64,000 bases of DNA from positions 26,650-90,649 of the IMG/VR virus record IMGVR_UViG_3300037418_002962. One strand, written 5' to 3'. The notes beneath the pieces were generated by a model that worked only from the letters and a program-made list of their open reading frames with translations, made no database searches and had not been told where the DNA came from. This DNA comes from a virus (lineage: Duplodnaviria > Heunggongvirae > Uroviricota > Caudoviricetes). This document shows, one piece after another, positions 4,474 through 56,436 of the stretch (position 1 is its first letter; each line of letters starts with the position of its first letter). The position numbers and the translations under genes are program-made.

Positions 4474-5657
4474 TGTCAGAAGCAATAAAAGGTGCAGTGA
4501 CAGAGACTATCAGAGAGCAAAAACCTTTGTATGATGCACTAACACAATATAAAAAGAAAAAGGAGTATGATTTGCTTATCTTCATCGGAAGAATGCAACC
4601 TTTTACTCTGGCTCACAAATCAATCATCGATAAGGCTTTAGATCTTGCAGAAGATGTATTGGTCCTTTTAGGATCTGCAAATTCTGCTTCAAATGCGAGA
4701 AACCCTTGGTCATTTGAAGATAGAAAGAAGATGATTGAATATAGCTTATGGGATACAGAAGATCCCTATAATGAATATAATTTCAATAGAGTTAATATCA
4801 AGCCATTAAATGATTATCCCTATAATAATGAACAATGGAAAATGAATGTAAATTCTATTGTCGATTCCTTAGTAGATATTAAAAAAGACAAGATTGGATT
4901 AATTGGTTATAATAAAGATTCAAGCTCGTATTATTTGACAATGTTTCCTCGTTTCGGAAACATTGATTCTGGTGGATATCTCTATAAAAATTCTCTTCTT
5001 GATGCTACAACAGTGAGAAATATTTATTTTGATAAGAGTAATAGAGATTATTTGGATGAAATTATTCCTTTAGTTCCAGATGGCACTTTTGACTTTTTAT
5101 GTGATTATTTCTATACTGATGAATATCTTTATATTAAGAATGAACTGAGCCATGCAAAAAAGAATAAGGAGACATACGGTCCTGGACCTTTCATGACTGT
5201 TGATAATGTGCTAATACAAGCAGGCCATGTTCTTCTTGTTACTAGAGGGGGAAATATTGGTAAAGGACTTCTAGCACTTCCAGGTGGTTTCCTAGAACCT
5301 TATGAAACACTTGAAGATGGAGCGATCAGGGAATTACAAGAAGAAACAGAAATTGATATCCCTCCTTCTGTTTTAAGAAGCAAAATAGTAGCTTCTAATA
5401 TCTTTGATTATCCTTATCGTTCTGTGTCAGGCCATTTAATTACGACTGCATTCCTGTATGACCTTGATGCAGAGATTGCACGAAAGGTTAATAAAAGGAA
5501 AAAAGGAGAACCTCTTGGCCTTACAAAGGTAAAAGGTTCGGATGATGCAGTTCATGCAGATTGGTATCCATTATCTTCACTAGATCCTAAGAAAATGCAT
5601 GATGACCATTATCATATTATTATGGAAATGTTGAAGTATAAGAAGGAGAGAAAATAA
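4473..5657 (+). CDS. nadM: Bifunctional NMN adenylyltransferase / ADP-ribose pyrophosphatase (NadM-Nudix)
   Basis: FIGRMQPFTLAH and RNPWSFEDR cytidylyltransferase-family motifs; Nudix box ALPGGF..ETLEDGAIRELQEET; GSDDA. Confidence 0.92.
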   Translation: MSEAIKGAVTETIREQKPLYDALTQYKKKKEYDLLIFIGRMQPFTLAHKSIIDKALDLAEDVLVLLGSANSASNARNPWSFEDRKKMIEYSLWDTEDPYNEYNFNRVNIKPLNDYPYNNEQWKMNVNSIVDSLVDIKKDKIGLIGYNKDSSSYYLTMFPRFGNIDSGGYLYKNSLLDATTVRNIYFDKSNRDYLDEIIPLVPDGTFDFLCDYFYTDEYLYIKNELSHAKKNKETYGPGPFMTVDNVLIQAGHVLLVTRGGNIGKGLLALPGGFLEPYETLEDGAIRELQEETEIDIPPSVLRSKIVASNIFDYPYRSVSGHLITTAFLYDLDAEIARKVNKRKKGEPLGLTKVKGSDDAVHADWYPLSSLDPKKMHDDHYHIIMEMLKYKKERK

Positions 5658-5950
5658 TGAGTTATAGAATATCGGATAATCTATTACTAAGAAAAGGAAC
5701 AACAAATATATTTACTCTTGAGGGGGTTGTTATTCTAGCCAAAGAAAAGTTATTCAATGAGTTCCAAGATAACATTGGAACTTGGCTAGAATATGCTGCA
5801 GGTTTAGGAATAAGACAAGTTACTTTGGACTCTAGATTCGTTCCTATTGTGGATCAAATTAGAAAATGGTGCTATGATAATGGATTTAGCTCTCTTTATT
5901 ATAAAGATCTTATTTTAATTTCTTGGGAGGCACCAAAAGATGAAACTTAA
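5657..5950 (+). CDS. Hypothetical protein (similar to the next gene)
   Basis: Coupled ORF; C-terminus W..DNGFS...ISWE. Confidence 0.65.
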   Translation: MSYRISDNLLLRKGTTNIFTLEGVVILAKEKLFNEFQDNIGTWLEYAAGLGIRQVTLDSRFVPIVDQIRKWCYDNGFSSLYYKDLILISWEAPKDET

Positions 5951-6671: not shown

Positions 6672-6974
6672 ATGAATAATGCAATTAATTGGCTCAAAGG
6701 CAAAAAGACTTATATTGTAGCCGGAATCGGTGTAGTTTTTGCAGTTGCTGAATATTGGGCAGGTGCTCTTAATGTTACTGATGCTGCTTATGCCATCTTA
6801 GGATCTCTCGGGCTCGGAACTTTACGTTCTGGTGTAAACTCAACTATCGAAAAGGTTCTTGAGGCTGTTCTAGAAACTGCAAAGTCAAAGGCTCCAGTAG
6901 CTCCAGCTAATGCTGCTGAAGTCGTAAAAGTTGCAGAAACAGTAATAACTGCAGCAGAATCAACCGTAAAGTAA
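6672..6974 (+). CDS. Holin-like membrane protein
   Basis: N-terminal GKKTY, two hydrophobic helices, GGAG RBS, AATAAATA late-type motif at 6634. Confidence 0.5.
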   Translation: MNNAINWLKGKKTYIVAGIGVVFAVAEYWAGALNVTDAAYAILGSLGLGTLRSGVNSTIEKVLEAVLETAKSKAPVAPANAAEVVKVAETVITAAESTVK

Positions 6975-6995
6975 TAAAGTTTTAAGGAGAAATAA

Positions 6996-7427
6996 ATGAT
7001 TAAAAATGTAATCACAGGACTTTTAGTTAGTTCAGTCTTAATTATTTCAGGCTGTGGATTAACAGCAAGTGACGTTAATACTGTAACAACAGATGCAAGC
7101 CTAGCTGCTCCAGTAATTTCTACTATTGCACCAGATTCTGCCAAGGCCGCAGTTAATTCTGTTCTTGCTGATGTCAATTCAAGCAAGACAATGCGTGATA
7201 TCGCCCTTGCTTGTTCTGTTGCGATTGACGCTGAAATTGTAGCAAAACCATTGCTTGCTCTTTCTGATACAGCAACTACATCTGCCAATCTTCTAGATTC
7301 TGGATGTCAAACCGTTACTGCTATTAAAACTCTTGCAGCAGATCCTACTTCCAAAAATTGGGTTAACGGTTTAGGTTCAAGCCTTAATACAGTTGTCCAG
7401 GTTACTAATGCGATTAATAAGAAGTAA
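6996..7427 (+). CDS. Putative lipoprotein
   Basis: Signal peptide with lipobox-like ISGC. Confidence 0.6.
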   Translation: MIKNVITGLLVSSVLIISGCGLTASDVNTVTTDASLAAPVISTIAPDSAKAAVNSVLADVNSSKTMRDIALACSVAIDAEIVAKPLLALSDTATTSANLLDSGCQTVTAIKTLAADPTSKNWVNGLGSSLNTVVQVTNAINKK

Positions 7428-7683
7428 TAATATTAAGGAGTTATTAGGAGTTTTTCTCTTAATAACTCCACTTTTCCTTACATGTTGTAGTACAGCAGCA
7501 ATTACTGTTGGGACTGCAGTTCTTTCATATGTAGCTAGCGTAAATAATGTAGGATCTTCTTGGCTTAAGCTTCAAGACGATAAGCAGCAGAGAAGTTGCC
7601 AAATTCAACAAAATCCTTTGACGGACCCAAATACAATTATAACAATTGGTCCATTTCCTCAGAATAATTCCACAACTCCTTAA
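7393..7683 (+). CDS. Putative lipoprotein/membrane protein (start uncertain)
   Basis: Hydrophobic segment ending FLTCCS. Confidence 0.45.
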   Translation: MSRLLMRLIRSNNIKELLGVFLLITPLFLTCCSTAAITVGTAVLSYVASVNNVGSSWLKLQDDKQQRSCQIQQNPLTDPNTIITIGPFPQNNSTTP

Positions 7684-7689
7684 TTATAC

Positions 7690-7718
7690 TTGACATTTTA
7701 TATAGAATGTAGTATATA
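7690..7718 (+). promoter_or_regulatory. Sigma70-type promoter
   Basis: TTGACA-N17-TATATA upstream of gp33. Confidence 0.6.
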
Positions 7719-7755
7719 AATTCCAGAGTAAATATAAACTGGAGTACATTATTAA

Positions 7756-7989
7756 GTGATAAAACCAAAAAGAAATAATCAAATTTTTTATGAGGGGATC
7801 AAGAATCTCCTTGATAAAGATATCAATATATTAGATGCAGTTACACTTTATTGTGAAAGAAACAACATCGATATTGAAGTAGCAGGATCTTGGATTAAAT
7901 CATCAAGCGAACTCAAAGAGATCTTTGAAGGCTATGCAGTTAACAATTATCTGATAAAGAAAAATATTAGTGAAGGAGTAAGTAAATGA
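7756..7989 (+). CDS. gp33: Late transcription co-activator gp33-like
   Basis: ILDAVTLYCERNNIDIE pattern; position upstream of gp59 and gp32. Confidence 0.75.
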   Translation: MIKPKRNNQIFYEGIKNLLDKDINILDAVTLYCERNNIDIEVAGSWIKSSSELKEIFEGYAVNNYLIKKNISEGVSK

Positions 7990-9059: not shown

Positions 9060-10115
9060 ATGGCAAACACAAGTTTTTCACAACTAAAAAGAAACTCTAA
9101 GAAGAATTTAGAGACACTAACAAAAGAAGCTCAGAAGCTCGTAAATAAACCATCATTCGATGATGATCGTTTCTGGAAGCCAACAATCAACAAAGATGGA
9201 AATGGGTCAGCAGTAATTCGCTTCCTTGATGCACCAGAAGGTGAAGAAGTACCATTCGTAAAGTACTACAAGCACAATTTCAAAAATCCAAAGACAAATC
9301 AGTGGTATATTGAAAATTCAAGAACTAGTCTTGGCAATAATGAACCAGATCCTTGCGGGGAATATAACAGCAAGCTCTGGGCAACTGGTATTGAATCAAA
9401 CAAGAAGATTGCCAGAGATCAGAAGAGAAAGCAAGTATTCGTTTCTAACATTTATGTTGTAAATGATCCTGCAAAGCCAGAATGTAATGGCAAAGTATTT
9501 CTATATGAATACGGGGCCGCTATTTTCGGTATTCTCAATGATGCTATGCATCCTGTTGATGATGGTTCAGGCGAAGTTCCAGATCCAATTAATCCATTCT
9601 CATTATTTGAGGGTGCTAATCTAAAGCTAAAGATTAGAAGTGTTGAATCTGACATTAATGGTTCAAAGAAGAAGCTTCCAAACTATGAAAAGAGTACTTT
9701 TGATGAGGTTGGGCCACTTCTTCCAGATGAGGATGATATGGAAGCAGTATGGAATCAGTGCCATAAGCTACAACCATTCCTTGACCCAAGCAACTTTAAA
9801 TCATATGAGCAGCTAAAGGCAAGGCTTGACAAGGTTCTAGGACTAAATTCAAATACTGCTCATGAAGATCCACAGGAAGTAGAAACTCCTTATAGCAAGA
9901 ATTCTCAAAGACCAAATTGGAAGGGTTCTGCAGGGGAAGATGAGGATGATGACGATATTCCCTTTACTGTCGCAAAGAGAGTAAAGGAAGTAGAGCCTGA
10001 TGAAGATGATACTCCAGGAGATTCCGAAGATGATGAACCATCAGCAGTAGTTGATGACGATGAGGATGAAGGAATGTCATTTTTCAAAAAATTGGCCGAG
10101 AAGAGCAAGAAATAA
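9060..10115 (+). CDS. gp32: Single-stranded DNA-binding protein gp32
   Basis: DDRFWKP..KDGNGSAVIRFL, WYIENS, EGANLKLKIR, FKSYEQLKARL, acidic C-terminal tail. Confidence 0.97.
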   Translation: MANTSFSQLKRNSKKNLETLTKEAQKLVNKPSFDDDRFWKPTINKDGNGSAVIRFLDAPEGEEVPFVKYYKHNFKNPKTNQWYIENSRTSLGNNEPDPCGEYNSKLWATGIESNKKIARDQKRKQVFVSNIYVVNDPAKPECNGKVFLYEYGAAIFGILNDAMHPVDDGSGEVPDPINPFSLFEGANLKLKIRSVESDINGSKKKLPNYEKSTFDEVGPLLPDEDDMEAVWNQCHKLQPFLDPSNFKSYEQLKARLDKVLGLNSNTAHEDPQEVETPYSKNSQRPNWKGSAGEDEDDDDIPFTVAKRVKEVEPDEDDTPGDSEDDEPSAVVDDDEDEGMSFFKKLAEKSKK

Positions 10116-10171: not shown

Positions 10172-10618
10172 TTGGTGGGTAGTAATATAGATTGGGAAAA
10201 TATTAAAAATGATCCTGAATTAACTGCAAAAATTGTTGCAATTATTGAGCAGAGAGAACTAGAACAAAAACTAATGGAAAGTTATGCTGATAGGTTTACA
10301 AATAATCCAAATTTTGGTAAACCAAATCCCATAAAAATCAACAGAAATCAGAAAATGATTTATAAAGCAATTTTGGAAGCATCTGAAAAGTTAAGTGATG
10401 CTTTATCTAAATTTACTGAAGTAGAAGAAAATGGAACTGTAAATTATACAATTGATCAAGAATATATCAATATAGCTTTAATCAGTATAAATGCAATTGC
10501 AAAAGGTCTTGAATTTCTATCAGAGTATGGAGAAAATTCCAAGGGAGATGTAACCATTCCTTTATCTGAAAGATTAAACGATATTATTAAGAAGCATAAG
10601 GAGAGCTTTAAACAATGA
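10172..10618 (+). CDS. Hypothetical protein
   Basis: 148-aa ORF after GGAGG RBS. Confidence 0.65.
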   Translation: MVGSNIDWENIKNDPELTAKIVAIIEQRELEQKLMESYADRFTNNPNFGKPNPIKINRNQKMIYKAILEASEKLSDALSKFTEVEENGTVNYTIDQEYINIALISINAIAKGLEFLSEYGENSKGDVTIPLSERLNDIIKKHKESFKQ

Positions 10619-10995
10619 AATTTTCAATTAGTAAATTTGGTAAAACATTAAATTATGAAATGTCAGATGATTTTTTAGGAACTGAATTTGAGGATGAGAT
10701 TCATGAAACAATGGATAAACAATTTGATATTGAACTTCAGAGAGAAAATCTAAAGACAGTTCTTAATGACGTGAAAGAGTTGGTTGAGAAAACAGATGAT
10801 AGATTTGGTCCCTACAATAGCGCCCATGAAGGCTATGCAGTACTATTAGAGGAACTTGATGAACTCTGGGATATCGTAAAGACTAAACAGCAAAATAGAG
10901 ATCTGAACAAAATGTATAGAGAAGCCTTGGATGTTGCCTCTTGTGCTATTAGATTTGCCAGAGATCTATGCAATGAAGAAAGAGGCAGAATTTAA
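10615..10995 (+). CDS. MazG-like all-alpha NTP pyrophosphatase
   Basis: SAHEGYAVLLEELDELW..EALDVA acidic helix motifs. Confidence 0.65.
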   Translation: MKFSISKFGKTLNYEMSDDFLGTEFEDEIHETMDKQFDIELQRENLKTVLNDVKELVEKTDDRFGPYNSAHEGYAVLLEELDELWDIVKTKQQNRDLNKMYREALDVASCAIRFARDLCNEERGRI

Positions 10996-41653: not shown

Positions 41654-42319
41654 TTATGGTTTCTTTTTAGGTTTGGGTTGTTGTTTGCGGTTTTTGCTAT
41701 TTTTTGGTAAACTTTGATTATGTGTATTTATGCTAGATTGGCTATCATTCCATACAGACTGTATAGAACTGGCCTTTTCAAAGCGCGCCACTGGCAAAAA
41801 TACTGCGGGAGCCCATTGTTCAGGTTCAATATATAAAATTTGTGATTGGATATGACTTGATAAATATTTTTTAAAGGCTGGTTTAAATGCAGAAAATTTT
41901 GATGCATTTTTTAAAATTCCGTAGCTGATCTTAAGGCGCGTGCTATCATCGAATTTTTTATTATTTAATAGAGAGTAAAGTTGGTCTAGCAAGCGACTCC
42001 GTAAAAACGGGCTAAGATAATGTAAGTTAATGGCATAGTGAAATCCTTTACCTACATCCACAATAAAGACAAGAGGAAATCTGTCCCAATAAGGTAAAAC
42101 TTTTTTATATTTTGCATCATATTGATAAAATACCATTCTACCAATCACGTCTGGAGATATAGAATTAAAAAGATTTGCAGGATTTTCTTTTAAGAGTTTA
42201 TTGGGGCTTAAAGTTTTTGGTATAAGATTTGACCATAACCAGTCAGAAGCTTTTTTAGAGTCTAAGCCTTTTTTCTGTGCTTCAATTAATATTTTGTCAA
42301 AAGTGCTTAAATTAGGCAT
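41654..42319 (-). CDS. gp2: DNA end protector gp2
   Basis: GRMVFYQYDAK..LPYWDRFPLVF, INLHYL, KKYLSSHI. Confidence 0.92.
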   Translation of the reverse strand: MPNLSTFDKILIEAQKKGLDSKKASDWLWSNLIPKTLSPNKLLKENPANLFNSISPDVIGRMVFYQYDAKYKKVLPYWDRFPLVFIVDVGKGFHYAINLHYLSPFLRSRLLDQLYSLLNNKKFDDSTRLKISYGILKNASKFSAFKPAFKKYLSSHIQSQILYIEPEQWAPAVFLPVARFEKASSIQSVWNDSQSSINTHNQSLPKNSKNRKQQPKPKKKP

Positions 42320-43305
42320 TTTGCTTGAATATCTTCCAATAATATAGCTTTAAATCCTTTATGGCTATTTCTTTTACCCGTAGCTACAGAGCTTAAATGA
42401 CCTTGGTTTAAATTATGCTCTCTACAAAACTTTGATAAATTAAAAACTATTTCTTCATGACCATCTGGAAATATAACAATATATTTCTTAGAGTTAGCTT
42501 CCGCAATTTTTTCTTTTGTTCCATTTGAACAAGGAGAACGAGTTAATCCCAATTGCCAAGCAGACATTTTTGCTTTTGCTACCTCGTCTCGTTTTTTACC
42601 TGTATTTGCTTTAGAAATTTTTTCTTTTGTTTCTTCAGTAACTTCACGACCAATAAGAGCTAATGATATTTTTTCCCCTATTTCTTTAGCTTTTTCCTTA
42701 CCATGTCTTTCTTCAAAAGAAATTCCTTTTTGAGTATTTGAGATCTTAATTTTTGTTTCTTCCTTGCAGGGCTTCCCTTTTTTTGCAATAGAAATCTTTT
42801 TGCGCGTTTCTAATGATTTTGGCCTTCCTAAATTAGCTTGTCTAGTCTTTTCTATTGATTCAGGAGAATTTTTTCTTCCTTTGCGACATTCAGAATTTTT
42901 TCTTCTATGTTCTTCTGATAATTTTCTGCCTGTTAGAGCTTTAGATATATTTTTCTTTCTTTCTTCAGAAAAAATACATCCTAAATTTCCTTCTCCACCT
43001 TTAGTAAGATTATAGCCATTACAAAATGAATCTCCAACAAAAGAATGATATTGAGAAATGAAATATGATTCCATTGTATTTAATACATAATCTCCATCTA
43101 GAGATTGAAAAATAATTTCCCAATTAAAATTTTCCTTTCCATATTTTCTTATTGATCTATGAAAAGGGCCATTATAATCAGTTGTGTTTTTATTGAAAGA
43201 ATCATTTAAATGCTTTTTTTGTCTTCTCTTCAAGTTATTCGTAAATCCGATATAACACTTACCATTCACTTTATTTGTTGCTTTGTAGATACTATAAACT
43301 TCCAT
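42307..43305 (-). mobile_element. Free-standing GIY-YIG homing endonuclease with NUMOD3 repeats
   Basis: SIYKATNKVNGKCYIGFT; SEEHRRK/SEETK-type repeats; C-terminal HTH-like region. Confidence 0.9.
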
Positions 43306-43992: not shown

Positions 43993-44021
43993 TATAAATA
44001 ATCAATAAACAAATATTTATA
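43993..44021. promoter_or_regulatory. Paired T4-type late promoters serving gp48 (+) and gp4 (-)
   Basis: TATAAATA at 43993-44000 (+) and its complement TATTTATA at 44014-44021. Confidence 0.7.
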
Positions 44022-44030
44022 GGAAAAACA

Positions 44031-45488
44031 ATGGCGATTCCTGGTCTTGTACCTCGTGTTCAACTTTTAATCAATAAAACAATACAGTCCGAAACTCCAA
44101 AAGGACTTACCCAAGATACTGTAACTAATGCCACAATATCTCCAAGTGGTGTTCAGGTTTCTGCAAGTATTTCTGGTGCTGTTGGAATTGATGGCACTGT
44201 TGGAACATCTGGTTCAGCAGTAGGAATGACTGTTGGTGGAGCAGCAGCAGTTTCTTTAAGTACTTCTGCTCTTTCTGGAATTGCTCAATTAAATGCAGGA
44301 TTATCGTTTGGTTCACCCCAAGGAAATTTTGGTGGTCCTTCTTCTGCACCTTTTGCATTTGCTTTACCAACTGGCACGGATTCTCTTTCCTTTCCTCTAG
44401 ATTTATCTACAGATACTGGAATCAGAATGGGATTTACTTTCACGAAATATTCAAGAGAACAGGCACAACAAGAACCAACCTATACTAATCAGGCACAAGT
44501 TTATTTGCCAGTTCCTGCAAATCTTAATGAACAATATGGAGTCTCTTATTCTCAAATATCACCTGGAATTGCAGGAAAAGCAGTTGGTGAACTATTCGGA
44601 AATCTTCAGAGTTCTGCAAACATGCTTGAAAAAGATCATTCTTGGGATGGAATCAAGGGTGCCTATAATAATTTTGCAGATAAAACTGCCTCTGCACTGA
44701 GAGGGACCATTGCAGGAAATACAATAGATAATGTAACAGATGCTCTAGTCCTTTCTGCCCTGAAATATAATATTCTTGGTATTTCTGATATGATCAAAGG
44801 TGTTACTGGGGATATTCCGATTGAAGGTATTATTCAGAACCAGCTAGGCAAGATCTTAAATCCTTCAACAACTGTTACATTGGCTGGTGTTGATTTAAGA
44901 AAGCATAACTTTACTTGGACATTCGCTCCAAAATCTCAAGATGAATCAGCAATACTGAAAAATATTTTTGATTTATTCAGAACAAGTATGTTGCCAACTA
45001 CTACAGGGAAATTCTTCCTTGATTTTCCAATGCTTGTTCAGCCAAAGTTCACTCCAATGGATAGCAATCTTTATCCATTTAAACAGTGTTTCATTACTGA
45101 TGTAAAAATTAATCATGCTGGTGGTGGATCTCCATCATTCTTCTGGGATACAAAGGCTGGTACTATTATTGAATTTTCGATTTCATTAATTGAAACAGAG
45201 ATGTTTGTTAACAACGAGAATACTCCATCTAATGCAGGAAGCACACAAAATCCTTCTTCACAACAAAGTGACGATGATGATTCTGTATTAGTAAGTCCAT
45301 TAGCTCCAGTTCCTGGAATTCCTGTATCTCCAGGATTTAATTCTGGTGTAAATTTTGGTAACAATGTTATTGCTCCTGCTGGAAGTCCTTTAGCAAATCA
45401 ACTTGATAATAATCCTGGAAGCTTCTCATCTGGTGGAACAACCTTTGGACCTAAATTTACACAACCTAATAATACAGTGAGTGTTTAA
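44031..45488 (+). CDS. gp48: Baseplate tail-tube cap gp48-like
   Basis: YLPVPANL.EQYGVSY, NP..VDLRKHNFTWTFAPKS.DE, C.ITDV; precedes gp53. Confidence 0.8.
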   Translation: MAIPGLVPRVQLLINKTIQSETPKGLTQDTVTNATISPSGVQVSASISGAVGIDGTVGTSGSAVGMTVGGAAAVSLSTSALSGIAQLNAGLSFGSPQGNFGGPSSAPFAFALPTGTDSLSFPLDLSTDTGIRMGFTFTKYSREQAQQEPTYTNQAQVYLPVPANLNEQYGVSYSQISPGIAGKAVGELFGNLQSSANMLEKDHSWDGIKGAYNNFADKTASALRGTIAGNTIDNVTDALVLSALKYNILGISDMIKGVTGDIPIEGIIQNQLGKILNPSTTVTLAGVDLRKHNFTWTFAPKSQDESAILKNIFDLFRTSMLPTTTGKFFLDFPMLVQPKFTPMDSNLYPFKQCFITDVKINHAGGGSPSFFWDTKAGTIIEFSISLIETEMFVNNENTPSNAGSTQNPSSQQSDDDDSVLVSPLAPVPGIPVSPGFNSGVNFGNNVIAPAGSPLANQLDNNPGSFSSGGTTFGPKFTQPNNTVSV

Positions 45489-46339
45489 TGGCTAAGGGTT
45501 CATCACAATATTTTCTAAACTTTCCAATACTTAATTATAATGGATTTGCAGCTACTAATATTCTTGCAAGATCAGTGATTGCTAAGAAATTTATGGAGAA
45601 TACAGAATTATTCTATGAATATACTGTAAAGGATGGTGAGACTGCAGAGGGAGTTGCTTTCAATGCCTATGGTAATTCTTCCTATGTTTGGGTTTTGAGA
45701 TTATTCAATAATAATATCGATCCATATTATTCCTGGCCTTTATCTCAGGAAGAATTTGGTAATATGATAACAGATAAGTATGGATCATGGGAAATAGCTG
45801 CACAACAAATACAGTATTACCAGAATAATTGGGCAGGGGATGATAGAGTATTGAATCTAAATGGATATGATTCATTGCCAGACTATTTGAAGAAATATTG
45901 GAAACCAGTTATTCGTGCTGGTAACTATGTCTATCAATACAAAAGAAATCCATTAGATACAACTGTATCGACTAACCAGATCCTTCAAATTCCTGTTGCA
46001 AATTCTGGCAGTTTCATAGATAATGAGAAAGTTTCTCAAAATTCTGCCACAGGATTTGTTGCATTTTCTAATTCATCCATGCTAACGTTACAGCATATAA
46101 CAGGAGCTTTCAATAATACCGATATTATTACTGGAAATACTTCTGGAGTCAATGCAAGTCCTTCTGGAAGCATTAACCAGACCTTTGTAATTCCGAATGA
46201 TGAGGCAGTATATTATAATCCTGTCACTGTTCTTGATGTTGAGATGGAAAATAATCAAGTTAGAGCAAATATTAAGATTTTACGAAATGAATATTTACAA
46301 TCAGTTGTACAATCATTCGCTACGGAAATGCAATCATGA
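45488..46339 (+). CDS. gp53: Baseplate wedge gp53
   Basis: YF.NFP, YTVKDGETAE.VAF.AYG..W...NN.IDPYY.WPLS. Confidence 0.9.
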   Translation: MAKGSSQYFLNFPILNYNGFAATNILARSVIAKKFMENTELFYEYTVKDGETAEGVAFNAYGNSSYVWVLRLFNNNIDPYYSWPLSQEEFGNMITDKYGSWEIAAQQIQYYQNNWAGDDRVLNLNGYDSLPDYLKKYWKPVIRAGNYVYQYKRNPLDTTVSTNQILQIPVANSGSFIDNEKVSQNSATGFVAFSNSSMLTLQHITGAFNNTDIITGNTSGVNASPSGSINQTFVIPNDEAVYYNPVTVLDVEMENNQVRANIKILRNEYLQSVVQSFATEMQS

Positions 46340-47019
46340 TAAAATTTAAAGAATTAATAGAAGATTTAGGAAATCCAATTTATAATCCTAATGAACAAAA
46401 TTATGACAAATATACTCCAAAAAAATACAAACCACAATATGTTAATAATATCAGATTACATAAAAAACCAGAATTAACTCCTGATGAAAAAAATAGTATT
46501 GATCATTATACCAAGGCAGGATACGTTAATATGAATAAATTTCATAGAGGGGAAGAATTACATGATTTTGGTCCTGCACCTATGTGGGCAGAACATTCTG
46601 ATTTGGATAAAATAGAAGAGAGATCAGCACATCTTGATTCTGCAATAGCGAAGCATACTACCAATGTTCCTATCCATGTCTGGAGAGGAATTGATGACGA
46701 TGCAGTAAAGAAATTAAAACTTGGAAAAAATAAAATAATTCATGATCCTGGATATGTATCTACTTCGGTATCTCAAAATATAGCCTCAACAAGCTTTAAA
46801 AATCCAGTGCGAGACCAGCATCATATTATGAGCATTAGAGTCCCTAAAGGAAGTAAAGCAGTATATATGAATCAGCATAGCAAAAGAAATGTAGATGAAC
46901 ATGAAGTTCTGTTACCAAGAGGAAGTAAGTTTAGATATTCTCATACAACAGAGCATACTCATAAGTATGGCTATCCTGTCTTTGTCCATCACCTAGAACA
47001 TATTCCAGAGAAATCATGA
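46336..47019 (+). CDS. ADP-ribosyltransferase paralog 1 (R-S-E, VIP2/Alt-like)
   Basis: HVWRG, GYVSTS, EHEVLLPRG. Confidence 0.93.
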   Translation: MIKFKELIEDLGNPIYNPNEQNYDKYTPKKYKPQYVNNIRLHKKPELTPDEKNSIDHYTKAGYVNMNKFHRGEELHDFGPAPMWAEHSDLDKIEERSAHLDSAIAKHTTNVPIHVWRGIDDDAVKKLKLGKNKIIHDPGYVSTSVSQNIASTSFKNPVRDQHHIMSIRVPKGSKAVYMNQHSKRNVDEHEVLLPRGSKFRYSHTTEHTHKYGYPVFVHHLEHIPEKS

Positions 47020-47672
47020 AATCATTCAAGCAACTAATCGAATCCTCAGAAGAATCTCCACAAGTATGGGAAGGAATTCATGATCCTAATAAATCATATT
47101 TCAGGCCAGCAAAAAAAGAATTTACAAATTCATCTTTCCTGAGTTCAGAGGAACAAGCGCATGTCCATAATTATTCTGATTCAGGCCATAACAATATTAA
47201 CAAATATCACAGATTTCCCGGTTCGATTAAAATAGAGCCTGTTATTAAATCGATAGAAAGGCATACTAAGCATATAGATTCAGCAATTTCTAAAAGTACT
47301 GCCAAGAATCATATGCATCTCTGGAGAGGAACAGAGGAAGATGTTGTTAAGGATCTGAAACCAGGAGATACTTTCCATGATAATGGCTATGTTTCTACTT
47401 CCATGTCTCCACAAGTTTCATGGGGATTTGCAGGATATCATAATAAAGAAATTCATCTAATGCATATCAAGACTCCAAAAGGGTCTAAGGTACTGGACCT
47501 AGAACATCATGGAGCTACTGCCAATAAAGGAGAAAACGAATTTCTTTTGCCAAGGGGTTCTAAGTTCCGTTATGATGGAAAGACATCCAAGAAAGGCAAA
47601 ATTCCTGATGGCAGTACTTATATGCAGCATGTTCATCACTTAACTTACCTAGGCCAGCATGAAGACGTTTAA
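47016..47672 (+). CDS. ADP-ribosyltransferase paralog 2
   Basis: HLWRG, GYVSTS, ENEFLLPRG. Confidence 0.93.
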   Translation: MKSFKQLIESSEESPQVWEGIHDPNKSYFRPAKKEFTNSSFLSSEEQAHVHNYSDSGHNNINKYHRFPGSIKIEPVIKSIERHTKHIDSAISKSTAKNHMHLWRGTEEDVVKDLKPGDTFHDNGYVSTSMSPQVSWGFAGYHNKEIHLMHIKTPKGSKVLDLEHHGATANKGENEFLLPRGSKFRYDGKTSKKGKIPDGSTYMQHVHHLTYLGQHEDV

Positions 47673-48342
47673 AGAATTAGTTGAGAAAACAGAAGAACAT
47701 GAATTAGGATTTCCAGATTCTTCAATTCTTATTACCAGAAATTTTATAAATCATAAAGAATTATTAAATCATGGAAATAAACTTCATAAAGCTAAGAAAT
47801 TAAATCAAAGAGAAACAGCAGTTGTTGACGAATATACTGGTGGTCTTTATAGAAACTTAAATGCACATCATAGAGGAAATGAAGAATTATCGCCTAGACA
47901 TGGAAATTATGATACTATTCCTGATTATCTTAATAAAAAAACAGAGCATCTGGATTCTGCAATAGCCAAACATAAAACAGAGCATCCAATTCATGTTTGG
48001 AGAGGAATTAAACATAAAATTGAAGCCAATCCTGGAGATACTTTCCATGATAAAGGATTTGTAAGCACTTCAATAAATCCTATTGTAACTGATAGTTTTG
48101 GTGGTTCTGCTAATGAGTTCCATGGTGGAACTCATGTTCTGCATATCAAAATTCCTAAAGGATCTAAGGCATTATATCCTAATAAGTATCCAGATACAAA
48201 TCCAAATTCTGGAGAACATGAAGTAATTCTACCAAGGAACTCTAAGTTCCGATACGAAGGTTCAGAAGAACATAAAGGAACAACAAATTATGGAACAAAG
48301 CTTAAATATATTGTTCATCACTTGACACATTTACCAGAATAG
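47659..48342 (+). CDS. ADP-ribosyltransferase paralog 3
   Basis: HVWRG, GFVSTS, EHEVILPRN. Confidence 0.93.
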   Translation: MKTFKELVEKTEEHELGFPDSSILITRNFINHKELLNHGNKLHKAKKLNQRETAVVDEYTGGLYRNLNAHHRGNEELSPRHGNYDTIPDYLNKKTEHLDSAIAKHKTEHPIHVWRGIKHKIEANPGDTFHDKGFVSTSINPIVTDSFGGSANEFHGGTHVLHIKIPKGSKALYPNKYPDTNPNSGEHEVILPRNSKFRYEGSEEHKGTTNYGTKLKYIVHHLTHLPE

Positions 48343-48351
48343 GAGTATATA

Positions 48352-48843
48352 ATGAAAACTTTTAAACATTTTATTGCAGAGCGTCAAACCAATATGCAGA
48401 CACTTTATATTCATAGGCCCTTGAAAAATGCCGAGGAATTTTGCAACCATTTCAAAAATCATGGAATGGAAACAATACATCCTGATGATATCCATGTGAC
48501 ACAGTGTTATAGCAAGACTCCCCTAGACTGGAATAGAATTAAACCATTGGAAGATGATCTTAAGGTTACTGAGGGAGAACGGGAAATGGCTGCTTTCGGT
48601 AAGGAAGGCAAGGCTATCGTGCTTAAGTTCACTTCACCAGAATTGATTGCTAGACATAATGAATTGATGGCTCATGGTGCTTCACATGACTTTGATAAAT
48701 ACGAAAGCCATTGTACAATCACTTATAACGGCTTAAACGGAAATCGGAAGATTGAAGAAATTACACCTTTCCAGGGAACATTGTTTTTTGGGGCGGAAAT
48801 CCATACACCAGTTAATGATTCTTGGGAACCTAAGAAAACTTAA
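48352..48843 (+). CDS. 2H phosphodiesterase, T4 57B/Acb1-like
   Basis: Two HxT motifs (IHVTQCYS, SHCTITY); HDFDKY; LFFGAE. Confidence 0.8.
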   Translation: MKTFKHFIAERQTNMQTLYIHRPLKNAEEFCNHFKNHGMETIHPDDIHVTQCYSKTPLDWNRIKPLEDDLKVTEGEREMAAFGKEGKAIVLKFTSPELIARHNELMAHGASHDFDKYESHCTITYNGLNGNRKIEEITPFQGTLFFGAEIHTPVNDSWEPKKT

Positions 48844-49499
48844 TGTAATTCTGGATAGGCATATCTAATTCTAAATCCTTTATGTTGCTTTTGAGCGCCT
48901 TCCAAAATATGGGAAAAAGCTCTATAAGATAAATTATATTGTTTACAAAAATCATTCAATGATGTTATTAATTCTTCATGTTGATCTGGAAAAATTATAA
49001 TATAATGGCTTTTCAGATTTTTACTACGAGAGTTTTTATATTTCAATATTTGTTCATCAGAGACATTATGCCCCATTAAAGAATTTGATAGTTTTTCTCT
49101 GGTTTCAATAGAAGTTGGTCTTCCTCTTAAGGATTTTGAAAGTTTCTCTTTATGCCCATCTGTTAAAACTCTTCCGGTAGTATCAGGAGCTTTTATCCCT
49201 CCTTTTTCTAAATTCCATCCAATATTTTTATTAGGTCTTAATTTATTTTCTATTTTATAACAATAATCTTCTTTTGATATCAATACAATATCCCAAATAA
49301 GATTTCTTATATCATATAAGTCACATGCATTTTGTAAATGTTTATTTTCATGCTTATTTTTAAGCAGTTTATTTTTATGTCTTCTAGCTCTATCTTTAAA
49401 TTTTGTTGATACACCAATATATCCTTGATTAAATATATCCGTATGTTCTTTTAAATGAATCCAATAAACAACTGCTTCTTTTTCATAAATATCATTCAT
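48840..49499 (-). mobile_element. GIY-YIG homing endonuclease
   Basis: VVYWIH...GYIGVS..R..RH; NUMOD3-like segments. Confidence 0.85.
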
Positions 49500-49725: not shown

Positions 49726-50346
49726 ATGAAATCATTCAGGCAACTTCTAGAAAACAATGAAAAATGGATAGGTACCGATAAGCACAATGTCTCAACTACC
49801 TCAGAAGACATTAAGGAATTTCCACATATTCATAAGCCTGTTGAGTTAAGCACAGATGAAAAAATGGCTCTGAAGTCTTATGCAGGTTCTAAGCATGAAC
49901 CTATTAATAGACTTCTAAGGGGAATGCCACAGCTTCATGAGCACGATAAAATATATGCTGAAAATTATGCTCCTGTCGATATCAAAGATCTGAAGTCTGC
50001 ACTTTCGAGACACACAACAGAACATCATGCCCATGTCTGGAGAGGAATAAGCAATAAAGGTGCTACAAGCCTTGACTTACATAATATGGAACCTGGAACT
50101 ATACTTCATGATAAAGGGTTCGTTTCTACTTCATTGGCTCCAGTAGTTGCAAGAGATTTCTCAGGAAATCATGTTTTTCATATTAAATTGCCAAAGGGAA
50201 GTAAAGCACTTTACAGAAATCATTATAATTTTGCAAGTGGAGAACACGAAGTAATTCTTCCACCAGATTCAAAGTTCCGTTACCTTGGTAAGGAAGAAAT
50301 GCCATCTGGTAGAGTAATTCATAGAATGGAGCATATACCAGAATGA
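49726..50346 (+). CDS. ADP-ribosyltransferase paralog 4
   Basis: HVWRG, GFVSTS, EHEVILPPD. Confidence 0.93.
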   Translation: MKSFRQLLENNEKWIGTDKHNVSTTSEDIKEFPHIHKPVELSTDEKMALKSYAGSKHEPINRLLRGMPQLHEHDKIYAENYAPVDIKDLKSALSRHTTEHHAHVWRGISNKGATSLDLHNMEPGTILHDKGFVSTSLAPVVARDFSGNHVFHIKLPKGSKALYRNHYNFASGEHEVILPPDSKFRYLGKEEMPSGRVIHRMEHIPE

Positions 50347-50951
50347 AAACTTTCAAGCAACTTATAGAAAATGAAGAAGAATGGCTAGGAACTGATAATC
50401 ATAATACACATATTACAAGTATAGCAAAAGATAATCTATTAAAAATTCATCCGAAGCATGATTTAGAAGATCTAGAGCATGAATCAATGCATCATTATTC
50501 AGAATATGGATATATTCCTATGAATGAATCTTTAAGAAATGAAACAAGTGGTCCTGATGATTTGGCTATTCATCATTTGAATAATGCAATAAACAAACAT
50601 ACTACGGAACATCATGCCCATCTCTGGAGAGGCATTTCAAGTAAAGCTAAAGATTTATTTAATAATGTCAATCCAGGAGATATCTTCCATGATAAAGGAT
50701 TTGTAAGTACTACTTTCAATCCAACACTTGCATCTATCTTTGGTCACACTGGATCTCTCATCCATATTAAAGTTCCTAAAGGTAGTAAAGCATTATATAG
50801 AGATCATTATCATAAGAATGCTTCTGAACGTGAAGTAATTCTACCAAAGAATTCTAAATTTCGTTATGAGGGGCATGAGGTTGTTAAAGATAAACAAGGA
50901 GTGCCAATTAAATTACATCATCTTACGCATATTCCAGAGGGGCATGAATAA
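50343..50951 (+). CDS. ADP-ribosyltransferase paralog 5
   Basis: HLWRG, GFVSTT, EREVILPKN. Confidence 0.93.
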   Translation: MKTFKQLIENEEEWLGTDNHNTHITSIAKDNLLKIHPKHDLEDLEHESMHHYSEYGYIPMNESLRNETSGPDDLAIHHLNNAINKHTTEHHAHLWRGISSKAKDLFNNVNPGDIFHDKGFVSTTFNPTLASIFGHTGSLIHIKVPKGSKALYRDHYHKNASEREVILPKNSKFRYEGHEVVKDKQGVPIKLHHLTHIPEGHE

Positions 50952-52252: not shown

Positions 52253-53047
52253 CTATACTTCGGACATTTTCAAATCTTGATAAAAATAAGTACTAGAAGG
52301 AATAATATTAGTTTTCATTTTATATCCTTTATAATGCATTCTAGATCCTTTTGCTACTTTTCTCATACCAGATTCATTAAGGTTGTTTTTCTTACAATAA
52401 TTATTTAAATCGGTTGTATAAATCAAATCTCCATCAGGATTTATAATTTCAAATAAAGTTACTTCAGGAAGAACAAATGGCTGCGAGTTATCGTCATAAC
52501 AAAATAACTTATATCCTTTATAGTGTTTTGAATTATTAATCGTGTTTACTGTATCTTCTACAGATAAATTAAGTTCATAGCAAGAAGCTTTTAAATTTTT
52601 TATTATATAAGGAGTTTTCGTAGGTATATAAATTAAAATAAAATTTTTCTTTAGATCTATATAATTTCGGGTTATTATAGAGATTTTATTTTTAGTTTCC
52701 TTTGAATGCTTATAATCAGTAGTAATAGGTGGCCTATTTCCTCCAGGTTCAATATTCCAGCCAATTCTTTTTTCAGGTCTTAACTTCCTCTCTACTTCAT
52801 AACAATAATCTTCAGTTCCAATTAATACAGTATCAAATATTAAATTTTTTAATCCATATAAATTATATGCATTTTGAAAATGAGAATTTTCATGTTTATT
52901 TCGTTTTAAATAATACTTATGAGTTTTCCATCTTTCTCTATAATTCGTAGAAACTCCTACATATCCTTCAGTAAATATATCGGTATGTTCTTCTAAATGT
53001 ATCCAATAAACAATTGCCTTTTTATCTGTAAATATAATATACCTCAA
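52253..53047 (-). mobile_element. GIY-YIG homing endonuclease (close relative of 48840..49499)
   Basis: IVYWIHLEEHTDIFTEGYVGVS; TATAAATA upstream at 53066-53073 (-). Confidence 0.85.
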
Positions 53048-55629: not shown

Positions 55630-56436
55630 TTGAAGAAGTTTAAAGAATATGCCAAATTAGTTAAAAATCTACCTCCAAAATATTGGGATGGTGATGATGA
55701 ATCAACTAAGAAAAAACCAGTAATAAAAGAACAAGCAACCTATGAAGGCACTAAGGACCATACTTATGAGCCACAGAATGATCTGAAATGGGCATCTGTT
55801 CATAATACACCTTATCTTACTCCAGAAGAAAAGCATAGCGTAAAAACATATGCAGCAGGCAGTGATTGGAAAACAAATATTGAAACTAATCCTCAAAGGG
55901 CACCCTACAGAACTATAAACGATCATCTAAGATTCAATAATATTAAACCAGAGCATGAAGAAATTGTTAACAACCATGTAAAGAATCTGGATTCTGCAAT
56001 CGATAAGCATACTACTCATACAGATTTGCATGTCTGGAGAGGCTTGGCAGGTTATGCCCAAAATTCTGGACCACATGATGAATTTACTTCCCTAACCCCT
56101 GGAGATACTTTTCATGATAAAGGATTTACTTCCACTTCTTTTAGGCCAATAACTGCAAGAGGATTTGGAATGGAATTTAAAAGCTTTCCTGATGGTACAG
56201 AAGAAGCGCATGAACACCTTGCCCATATTCATGTTCCGTCTGGGCATAAGGCATTATATCTTCAGCATCATGATTTAGGTAATGGATACGAACACGAAGT
56301 ATTACTTCCCAGAAATGCTAAGTTTAAATATATGGGGAAAGAAACTCACGAAAAAGTAAATGATTATAGGCCAACTTCAAAAAATATTACCCATATTCAT
56401 CACTTACAATACATAGGGAAACATGAAGAGACTTAA
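55630..56436 (+). CDS. ADP-ribosyltransferase paralog 9
   Basis: HVWRG, GFTSTS, EHEVLLPRN; TTG start. Confidence 0.92.
   Translation: MKKFKEYAKLVKNLPPKYWDGDDESTKKKPVIKEQATYEGTKDHTYEPQNDLKWASVHNTPYLTPEEKHSVKTYAAGSDWKTNIETNPQRAPYRTINDHLRFNNIKPEHEEIVNNHVKNLDSAIDKHTTHTDLHVWRGLAGYAQNSGPHDEFTSLTPGDTFHDKGFTSTSFRPITARGFGMEFKSFPDGTEEAHEHLAHIHVPSGHKALYLQHHDLGNGYEHEVLLPRNAKFKYMGKETHEKVNDYRPTSKNITHIHHLQYIGKHEET

Follow-up and report, generated by a model that had tools for sequence, protein, structure and literature searches.

The window analysed here is a stretch of 64,000 nucleotides (bases 26650-90649) from an IMG/VR virus record of 243,684 bp, which has 34% G+C, an estimated completeness of 97%, and belongs to a giant T4-like phage. 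At 48352-48843 on the plus strand it contains a gene with an ATG start for a protein of 163 residues, which very probably is a 2H phosphodiesterase of the Acb1 family and which begins with a ten-residue leader like the capsid-targeting sequence of T4 internal proteins. We consider it moderately probable that this enzyme is packaged into the phage head, relieved of its leader, and injected into the host to act against CBASS, the antiphage defence whose signalling is based on cyclic oligonucleotides. The loading into the head, taken by itself, is likely. Both the enzyme family and the delivery tag are known, and what is new is their combination, for which no earlier description was found. If the reading is true, the capsid-targeted Acb1 would be the first cargo of the internal-protein type directed against nucleotide second-messenger immunity, and it would be an enzyme, not a stoichiometric inhibitor.

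Enzyme domain and leader

The Pfam profile Acb1 (PF23474) matches residues 16-160 (48397-48831, plus strand) over its positions 1-143 of 144, with an E-value of 1.5e-30 and 106.3 bits at a cut-off of 27. A sequence-only reading of the window had placed an open reading frame (ORF) with two HxT motifs here, and its position was exact. The motifs are H48-V-T50 (48493-48501) and H120-C-T122 (48709-48717), which align with the first and second HxT of the Acb1 crystal structure 7T26. In an alignment of the query with 49 relatives, there is no variation at residues L18, Y19, R22, H48, T50, W60, and H120, and more than 90% of the 50 sequences keep T122. Because of this conservation and the alignment to the catalytic residues H44, T46, H113, and T115 of Acb1 (PMC9117128), the two motifs are therefore the Acb1 catalytic tetrad. 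The same 50 sequences were the input of an AlphaFold2 model, which reached a mean predicted local distance difference test score (pLDDT) of 91.9 and a predicted template modelling score (pTM) of 0.83. When the model was compared with the PDB by Foldseek, 7T26 ranked first (E-value 3.8e-8, template modelling score (TM) of 0.69 by query and 0.81 by target, root-mean-square deviation 2.7 Å), and the next match after 7T26/7T27 was 9Q2Y, a phage Acb1-type phosphodiesterase. Profile, catalytic motifs, and fold thus agree with the Acb1/57B-like identity that the earlier reading had proposed, including the structural comparison with Acb1 that it had suggested. There is a single Acb1 copy in the genome.

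The identity to the biochemically tested Acb1 proteins is about 21-22% in the fold alignment, and 7T26 is matched by sequence with an E-value of 1e-5. Of the Acb1 residues that stack on the bases, Y12, F107, and W147 are aligned to Y19, F114, and W158 of the query, and W74 has its likely counterpart in F82, provided that a one-residue gap is placed correctly. In the model, pLDDT is low for the C-terminal tail, as expected of a mobile lid. The catalytic site looks intact. The PHROG label of the protein, 'RNA ligase', stems from the old annotation of T4 57B. The LigT or RNA-ligase reading was rejected, with the 2_5_RNA_ligase2 model reaching 15.3 bits at a cut-off of 27. The folds of LigT, Usb1, and the plant cyclic phosphodiesterase (CPDase) match at a TM of only 0.4-0.5 (about 0.5 for LigT), and no RNA ligase gene was found near the ORF in the ORF and domain annotation of the window. 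The ORF is flanked by stop codons on both sides and has no second domain, so that there is no covalent fusion to a head or effector domain.

The Pfam match leaves out the first 15 residues, of which residues 4-9 form a separate short helix in the model (pLDDT 67). A start at 48352 is favoured over one at the internal Met15: a Shine-Dalgarno-like AGGAG (48341-48345, plus strand) is found 6 nt 5' of the ATG at 48352 and none is found before Met15. The ten codons at 48352-48381 encode MKTFKHFIAE, and the end I-A-E fits (L/I)-x-E, the motif that PMC12991175 and PMC8442874 give for cleavage by the T4 protease gp21. In T4, the sequence that targets proteins to the capsid is MKTYQEFIAE, which the prohead protease cuts once and which is enough for the loading of foreign proteins (PMC8442874). 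According to the T4 record, it forms the start of ipII and ipIII, while ipI begins with MKTFKEF. The query leader shares seven of ten residues with ipII and ipIII and the first five with ipI, and reads like the first five residues of ipI joined to the FIAE of ipII and ipIII. The likeness to the T4 sequence that the sequence-only reading had noticed was checked in the cited paper and in the T4 record, and it is real.

The leader is also widespread within the genome itself. A profile made from five Pfam-verified ADP-ribosyltransferases (ARTs) of the window found 28 ART paralogs in the genome, and [LI]xE occurs within the first 12 residues in 25 of these 28 compared to 36 of the 252 other ORFs. 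A leader pattern has 31 hits in the genome, where shuffled versions give 1.4 on average. A matrix built from the ART leaders of the genome only gives the Acb1 leader 14.7 bits, and in the six-frame translation only 24 Met positions score above 12. The codons of the leaders vary between the paralogs while the peptide is kept. The matrix also picks a LRV/HEAT-repeat protein of 504 residues outside the window (G000:C1:95448-96962, leader MKSFSQLLE). The earlier proposal that the leader is used on cargo other than ARTs thus stands for Acb1, but Acb1 is not the sole case. Another leader-like ORF at C1:177426 (241 residues) belongs to no Pfam family.

A protease that could process such leaders is encoded by the genome. 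The gp21-type protease at G000:C1:138938-139588 (Peptidase_S77, E-value 3.4e-35) is part of a T4-type head module and its gene adjoins that of a T4-type major capsid protein. A 361-residue ORF separates them and is regarded as the scaffold solely because of its position. The major capsid protein (455 residues) is 60-66% identical in tblastn to those of T4-superfamily phages, namely Stenotrophomonas DLP_6, Pelagibacter Mosig, Methylophilales Melnitz, and Sinorhizobium phiM12-type phages. Leader resemblance, paralogs, and protease taken together, the identification of the N-terminus of the Acb1-like ORF as a T4-type capsid-targeting leader is supported. The protease (also L088:2939-3589) begins itself with a leader-like MKLLRDYLTE ending in L-T-E, which suggests a self-targeting or self-processing akin to that of the cargo.

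Relatives with leaders or fused to head proteins

Six more Acb1 homologs carry the leader: the representatives P0011, P0016, P0041, P0094, and P0143, and the IMG/VR locus L073. They begin with MK[TSK]F..[FY][LI].E or with MISFKQFLHE, although their domains share no more than 34-43% identity with that of the query. The leaderless relatives begin directly at the conserved TLYV.RP. P0041 and L073 are located directly upstream of gp25-/gp6-like baseplate genes (contigs L003 and L073), and the complete 150-kb record that holds L073 encodes a gp21-type protease. P0041 is preceded by another leader-bearing gene, P0094 by an ART gene, and P0011 is followed by the gene of a leader-bearing GNAT acetyltransferase. 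By contig, the neighbours of the leader-bearing Acb1 genes are an ART in L091 and other leader-bearing genes in L003 and L005. Because six diverged homologs keep the leader in T4-like surroundings, the pairing of leader and Acb1 is recurrent and maintained, and no accident of one genome.

Some of the adjoining genes deserve mention. L005 and L003 are short metagenomic contigs. The neighbour on L005 (818-1219) encodes a GNAT acetyltransferase of 133 residues, which begins with MKTYKQFISE and matches Acetyltransf_1 above the cut-off, and the neighbour on L003 (261-785) encodes a protein of 174 residues without known family that begins with MKSFSAYLTE. A guess that the latter is ParB-like found no Pfam support and was dropped. 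The related 150-kb phage of L073 encodes four LRV-repeat paralogs (5302-5814, 6888-7781, 9591-10034, and 10178-10840), all starting with MSKKFLAKYGTP, which are interleaved with the gp25/gp6 baseplate genes much like the ARTs in the window.

The wider family was collected by an exhaustive HMMER search together with tblastn. A word-indexed protein search returned only the query itself. The HMMER search gave 1822 relatives, 1110 of them at an E-value of 1e-10 or better, and domain architectures were taken from the best 150 representatives. In 126 of these the domain is part of a longer protein and in 24 it is free-standing. Pfam domains were determined for a sample of 20 long representatives, and 13 of these have a head-protein or ART domain: MuF was found in seven, a portal domain in three, an ART in three, and an XkdF-type prohead protease and DUF2213 in one each. 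Among the fusions are a 1215-residue protein with the order portal-MuF-Acb1 and a polyvalent one of 2281 residues with two ARTs, Acb1, and MuF. The best matches after the query itself are 46-47% identical domains in proteins of 380-940 residues with MuF, portal, S78_2, DUF2213, or ART domains, and in the domain tree the query is not separated from the MuF- and portal-fused relatives. The query domain belongs to the sequence clade that is found in MuF and portal fusions and is closer to it than to T4 57B.

The same picture is obtained from other collections. Of the 80 best loci in IMG/VR, about 70 place the domain within a reading frame of roughly 300-1900 residues (mostly 600-700), either at the extreme C-terminus or further upstream. 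In cultured phages, tblastn matches are found within genes annotated as portal in Synechococcus, Rhizobium, Pseudomonas phiPSA1-type, and Pseudanabaena Pam3 phages. The best PDB match by sequence is the Pam3 portal 8HDS (residues 469-616 of 621) with E-values of 2e-19 for the single sequence and 2e-39 for the profile. Because 8HDS was not among the matches of the Foldseek search of the PDB, the deposited model probably lacks a resolved Acb1-like domain. Acb1 and ART domains are combined in one polypeptide in the metagenomic proteins P0006, P0084, and P0042, whose architectures are Acb1 with ADPrib_exo_Tox, Acb1 with ART-PolyVal, and ART-PolyVal with Acb1, MuF, and ADPrib_exo_Tox. These polypeptides mirror at the protein level the order of the window, where Acb1 is located inside an ART array.

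MuF- and portal-fused 2H domains in polyvalent proteins have been described by Iyer et al. 2017, who proposed that they act as RNases or degrade defence nucleotides (PMC5512222). Our survey of the relatives turns this architecture prediction into a testable statement on a named anti-defence family, and cultured phages with such fusions exist (Pam3, phiPSA1, and RHEph04-type rhizobiophages). From the architectures, virion delivery of the Acb1 clade, which Iyer et al. had predicted in 2017 for 2H domains, looks general with interchangeable adaptors. It is a more tentative thought, and one we would not rate as probable, that virion pre-loading is the usual and perhaps the ancestral deployment of the Acb1/2H clade. 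Leader, portal, MuF, and prohead-protease fusion would then be interchangeable adaptors of a single anti-signalling cargo, often co-delivered with ARTs, and the T4 Acb1 would be a derived internal protein that has lost the cleavable tag. If so, the action against CBASS would start at DNA entry in many phages and not after early gene expression. The known anti-CBASS proteins Acb1, Acb2, and Acb4 are regarded as being made after infection has started.

A second type of N-terminus, M[KR][IL]x[ED]LFE (MKITELFE, MKIIELFE, MKIEDLFE, and MRAIEIFE), precedes the Acb1 domain in contigs of jumbo phages. It is found at L018:5920-6480, L021:5980-7941, L023:6001-7086, and L039:5980-7470 (contigs of 59-578 kb) and in P0051, P0065, P0119, and P0149, and these proteins often have 200-500 extra residues without Pfam family after the Acb1 domain. 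The gene just upstream starts alike, with MREFMEILTELNW or MRAEQLFEDIF, and a Peptidase_S77 protease is present in the complete 578-kb record with this type of Acb1. This N-terminus, with its final L-F-E, may represent another signal for head targeting or another propeptide.

Proposed delivery and its alternatives

Late expression, targeting, cleavage, ejection, and substrate, as we infer them, would follow one another in this way. The Acb1-like gene would be transcribed late, along with the ART array and the genes for the baseplate. As with IPI-III of T4, the leader would guide the precursor into the prohead's scaffolding core, and the gp21-type protease would cut after Glu10 (between I-A-E and R) and leave an enzyme of 153 residues (residues 11-163) with a predicted mass of 17.7 kDa and a pI of about 6.0 in the mature head. 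When the DNA is ejected, the enzyme would leave the head with it, accompanied by as many as 28 ARTs. From the first seconds of infection, before phage gene expression, it would hydrolyse the host's cyclic di- or trinucleotide signals of the CBASS type independently of metals, and the activation of effectors would be blunted. In T4 there is precedent that proteins tagged with the capsid-targeting sequence are packaged and that internal proteins are injected (PMC8442874, PMC12373910). The case for pre-packaging is strengthened because diverged homologs keep the leader and because portal, MuF, or prohead-protease domains are joined to Acb1 in its closest relatives.

Several points weigh against this course of events. 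The phage is uncultivated and the support for its Acb1 comes from sequence and fold. The evidence for late transcription of the gene is weak and consists of the gene order and of one copy of TATAAATA, the T4 late-promoter consensus, at 43993-44000 (plus strand), 31 nt 5' of the start of a gp48-like gene. This octamer is not enriched, with nine copies in the window compared to 9.1 expected. In T4, CBASS is activated late and by the prohead protease (PMC12991175), and the benefit of an enzyme that is present at time zero is therefore not self-evident. The glutamate E141, with which Acb1 reads the N6 of adenine, aligns with T152 of the query at a position that varies across the clade. The substrate range may thus differ from that of the T4 and FBB1 Acb1, which bears on preference and not on catalysis. 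The predicted mature protein is mildly acidic, unlike the basic internal proteins of T4. In addition, a maximum-likelihood tree of 50 domains, with the leader columns removed, is nearly a star on which the leader needs four changes, which is no better than with shuffled labels. The tree is compatible with a single origin of the leader, and neither one lineage nor several can be demonstrated from it.

It is unlikely, but to be taken seriously, that the enzyme is packaged and injected as proposed and has a substrate other than the CBASS signal, be it RNA ends with 2',3'-cyclic phosphates, 2'-5' oligoadenylates, the cyclic oligoadenylates of type III CRISPR systems, or a product linked to the ARTs. 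Iyer et al. 2017 offered a role as RNase or in the degradation of 2'-5' oligoadenylates for the MuF/portal-fused 2H clade. The low identity to the tested Acb1 and the exchange of E141 for T152 would fit this, and the recurrence of the domain with ARTs, both in single polypeptides and in the ART array, could mean a shared pathway beyond a shared delivery. However, the query matches the Acb1 profile from end to end, while its scores with the models for LigT and 2'-5' RNA ligase do not reach the threshold. Its fold is far closer to Acb1 than to LigT, Usb1, and CPDase, it has residues aligned to stacking aromatics and to the tryptophan of the C-terminal lid, and a partner RNA ligase was not found nearby in the annotation of the window.

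Less probable is that the enzyme is not packaged at all, the leader being a by-product of recombination in a leader-flanked array or else a shared translation-start module. The enzyme would then act late in the cytoplasm, for example by quenching CBASS that has been triggered by the protease. The gene is part of a putative late-gene string, and gp21-type proteases can switch on the CD-NTases (nucleotidyltransferases related to cGAS and DncV) of CBASS late in infection (PMC12991175). The Acb1 of T4 works without a cleavable leader, and the acidic character of the query is again unlike that of the classical internal proteins. A leader that is just carried along is nevertheless hard to reconcile with six homologs that have kept the peptide at 34-43% identity in the domain, which argues for selection on the peptide, or with leader codons that vary among the paralogs. 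Because the ten-residue sequence of T4 suffices for foreign proteins, a matching leader is expected to work with the same protease family, and the leaderless relatives that are fused to portal, MuF, or protease domains point to a location in the virion. That the ORF is a decaying or inactive copy without function is highly improbable. A homing-endonuclease gene overlaps its stop codon and the region has a high gene turnover, but the frame is intact, all residues that are invariant in the family are present, the model is confident, and the ribosome-binding site is good. We regard a packaged and injected Acb1 that acts on CBASS signals as the best-supported reading.

With the Acb1 proteins of T4 (57B) and Erwinia phage FBB1 (7T26/7T27; PMC9117128), the query shares the Pfam family, the compact 2H fold, the HxT/HxT tetrad, and a similar size. 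It differs from them in the identity of about 21% and in the glutamate E141, which is not conserved. The surroundings are comparable as T4 57B is located directly upstream of ipI and about 3 kb from the baseplate genes 53 and 5, and the query gene between a gp53-like gene and a tail gene. The T4-clade Acb1 proteins start with M(K)F(K/Q)DFS(T)G, without (L/I)xE or a cleavable leader, whereas the query has (L/I)xE and a predicted cleavable leader. Nearly all T4-clade Acb1 proteins (T4 NC_000866, L006, 11592-12411, and P0151-P0218) have such a start, M(K)F(K/Q)(D/E)FS(T)G, followed by the conserved LYV. It resembles the beginning of the ipI leader (MKTFKEFTST) minus one residue, without (L/I)xE. 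The matrix of the ART leaders scores the N-terminus of T4 57B negatively, and the likeness to a leader is visible only with a one-residue gap. The start of the T4-clade proteins may have remained from a former targeting leader, or the likeness may be due to chance.

The T4 internal proteins and the capsid-targeting sequence were reportedly treated by Mullaney and Black in 1996. Like the query, IPI, IPII, and IPIII have a leader of about ten residues that ends in a gp21 site, a gp21-type protease in the genome, and a variable locus of unrelated cargoes that share nothing but the leader. However, the T4 proteins are basic, and the three of them whose function is known all inhibit the GmrSD type IV restriction enzymes stoichiometrically (PMC12373910), while the query is acidic and predicted to be an enzyme directed at nucleotide signalling. 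The ejected virion protein Gp15 of ICP3 has been reported as a stoichiometric inhibitor of the CBASS effector CapV. T4 Alt and, by prediction, the ARTs of the present genome are likewise enzymes that are loaded into the head, processed by the protease, and injected, as the query would be, and the ARTs of the genome have the same leader and array. They ADP-ribosylate proteins, in contrast to the phosphodiesterase activity on a small-molecule signal that is predicted for the query. The MuF/portal-fused 2H domains (PMC5512222; e.g. 8HDS) are the closest clade, with the same predicted role and a frequent partnership with ARTs, but they are covalently fused to a structural head protein, whereas the query is free-standing with a predicted cleavable leader of the T4 type.

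Hobbs et al. 2022 described Acb1 as a free T4 protein with 273 phage homologs and did not mention the portal (PMC9117128). In our literature search no paper was found that describes Acb1 as part of the virion or as the bearer of a capsid-targeting sequence, and none that links the MuF/portal 2H clade, whose prediction in 2017 predates Acb1, to Acb1 or to anti-CBASS function. A search for BCSR5 together with phosphodiesterase returned nothing relevant. As a practical rule, the leader can be used as a search handle for injected anti-defence enzymes in T4-like metagenomic phages.

Genomic setting

The Acb1-like gene is part of a same-strand string that is headed by two baseplate genes (44031-46339, plus strand). 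These encode a gp48-like baseplate tail-tube cap (44031-45488; PHROG 230 with an E-value of 2e-33 in the PHROG/Pfam search) and a gp53-like wedge protein (45488-46339; PHROG 232 with an E-value of 4e-30 and Pfam Phage_gp53). Three ART genes follow at 46336-47019, 47016-47672, and 47659-48342 (plus strand; Pfam ADPrib_exo_Tox with E-values of 5e-24 to 1e-20), which abut or overlap one another and the Acb1-like gene and have the leaders MIKFKELIE, MKSFKQLIE, and MKTFKELVE. The stop codon of the last one (48340-48342) overlaps the AGGAG of the Acb1-like gene. Downstream of the latter there are a convergent GIY-YIG/NUMOD homing-endonuclease gene on the minus strand (48840-49499; PHROG 314 with an E-value of 4e-13 and Pfam NUMOD3), which overlaps the Acb1-like stop by 4 nt and has no part in the proposed mechanism, then two further ART genes on the plus strand at 49726-50346 and 50343-50951 (Pfam ADPrib_exo_Tox, leaders MKSFRQLLE and MKTFKQLIE), and a tail protein gene. 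A megablast search of the array against 50,697 phage records gave no match.

Scans of the window for sigma-70 promoters and terminators gave background levels only, and no terminator-like sites were found between 45.4 kb and the Acb1-like gene. Copies of TATAAATA located 20-80 nt 5' of ORF starts are found at positions 2990, 8982, 33646 (minus strand), 43993, and 53066 (minus strand) of the window, although the total count of the motif in the window is that expected by chance. The string of baseplate and ART genes is broken up by GIY-YIG/NUMOD genes on the minus strand at 42307-43305 and 52253-53047 in addition to the one at 48840-49499. Within the array, an ORF of 88 residues at 56170-56436 (G000:C1:82819-83085) matches the ART profile partially (E-value 6e-20), has no leader, and is probably a truncated ART paralog.

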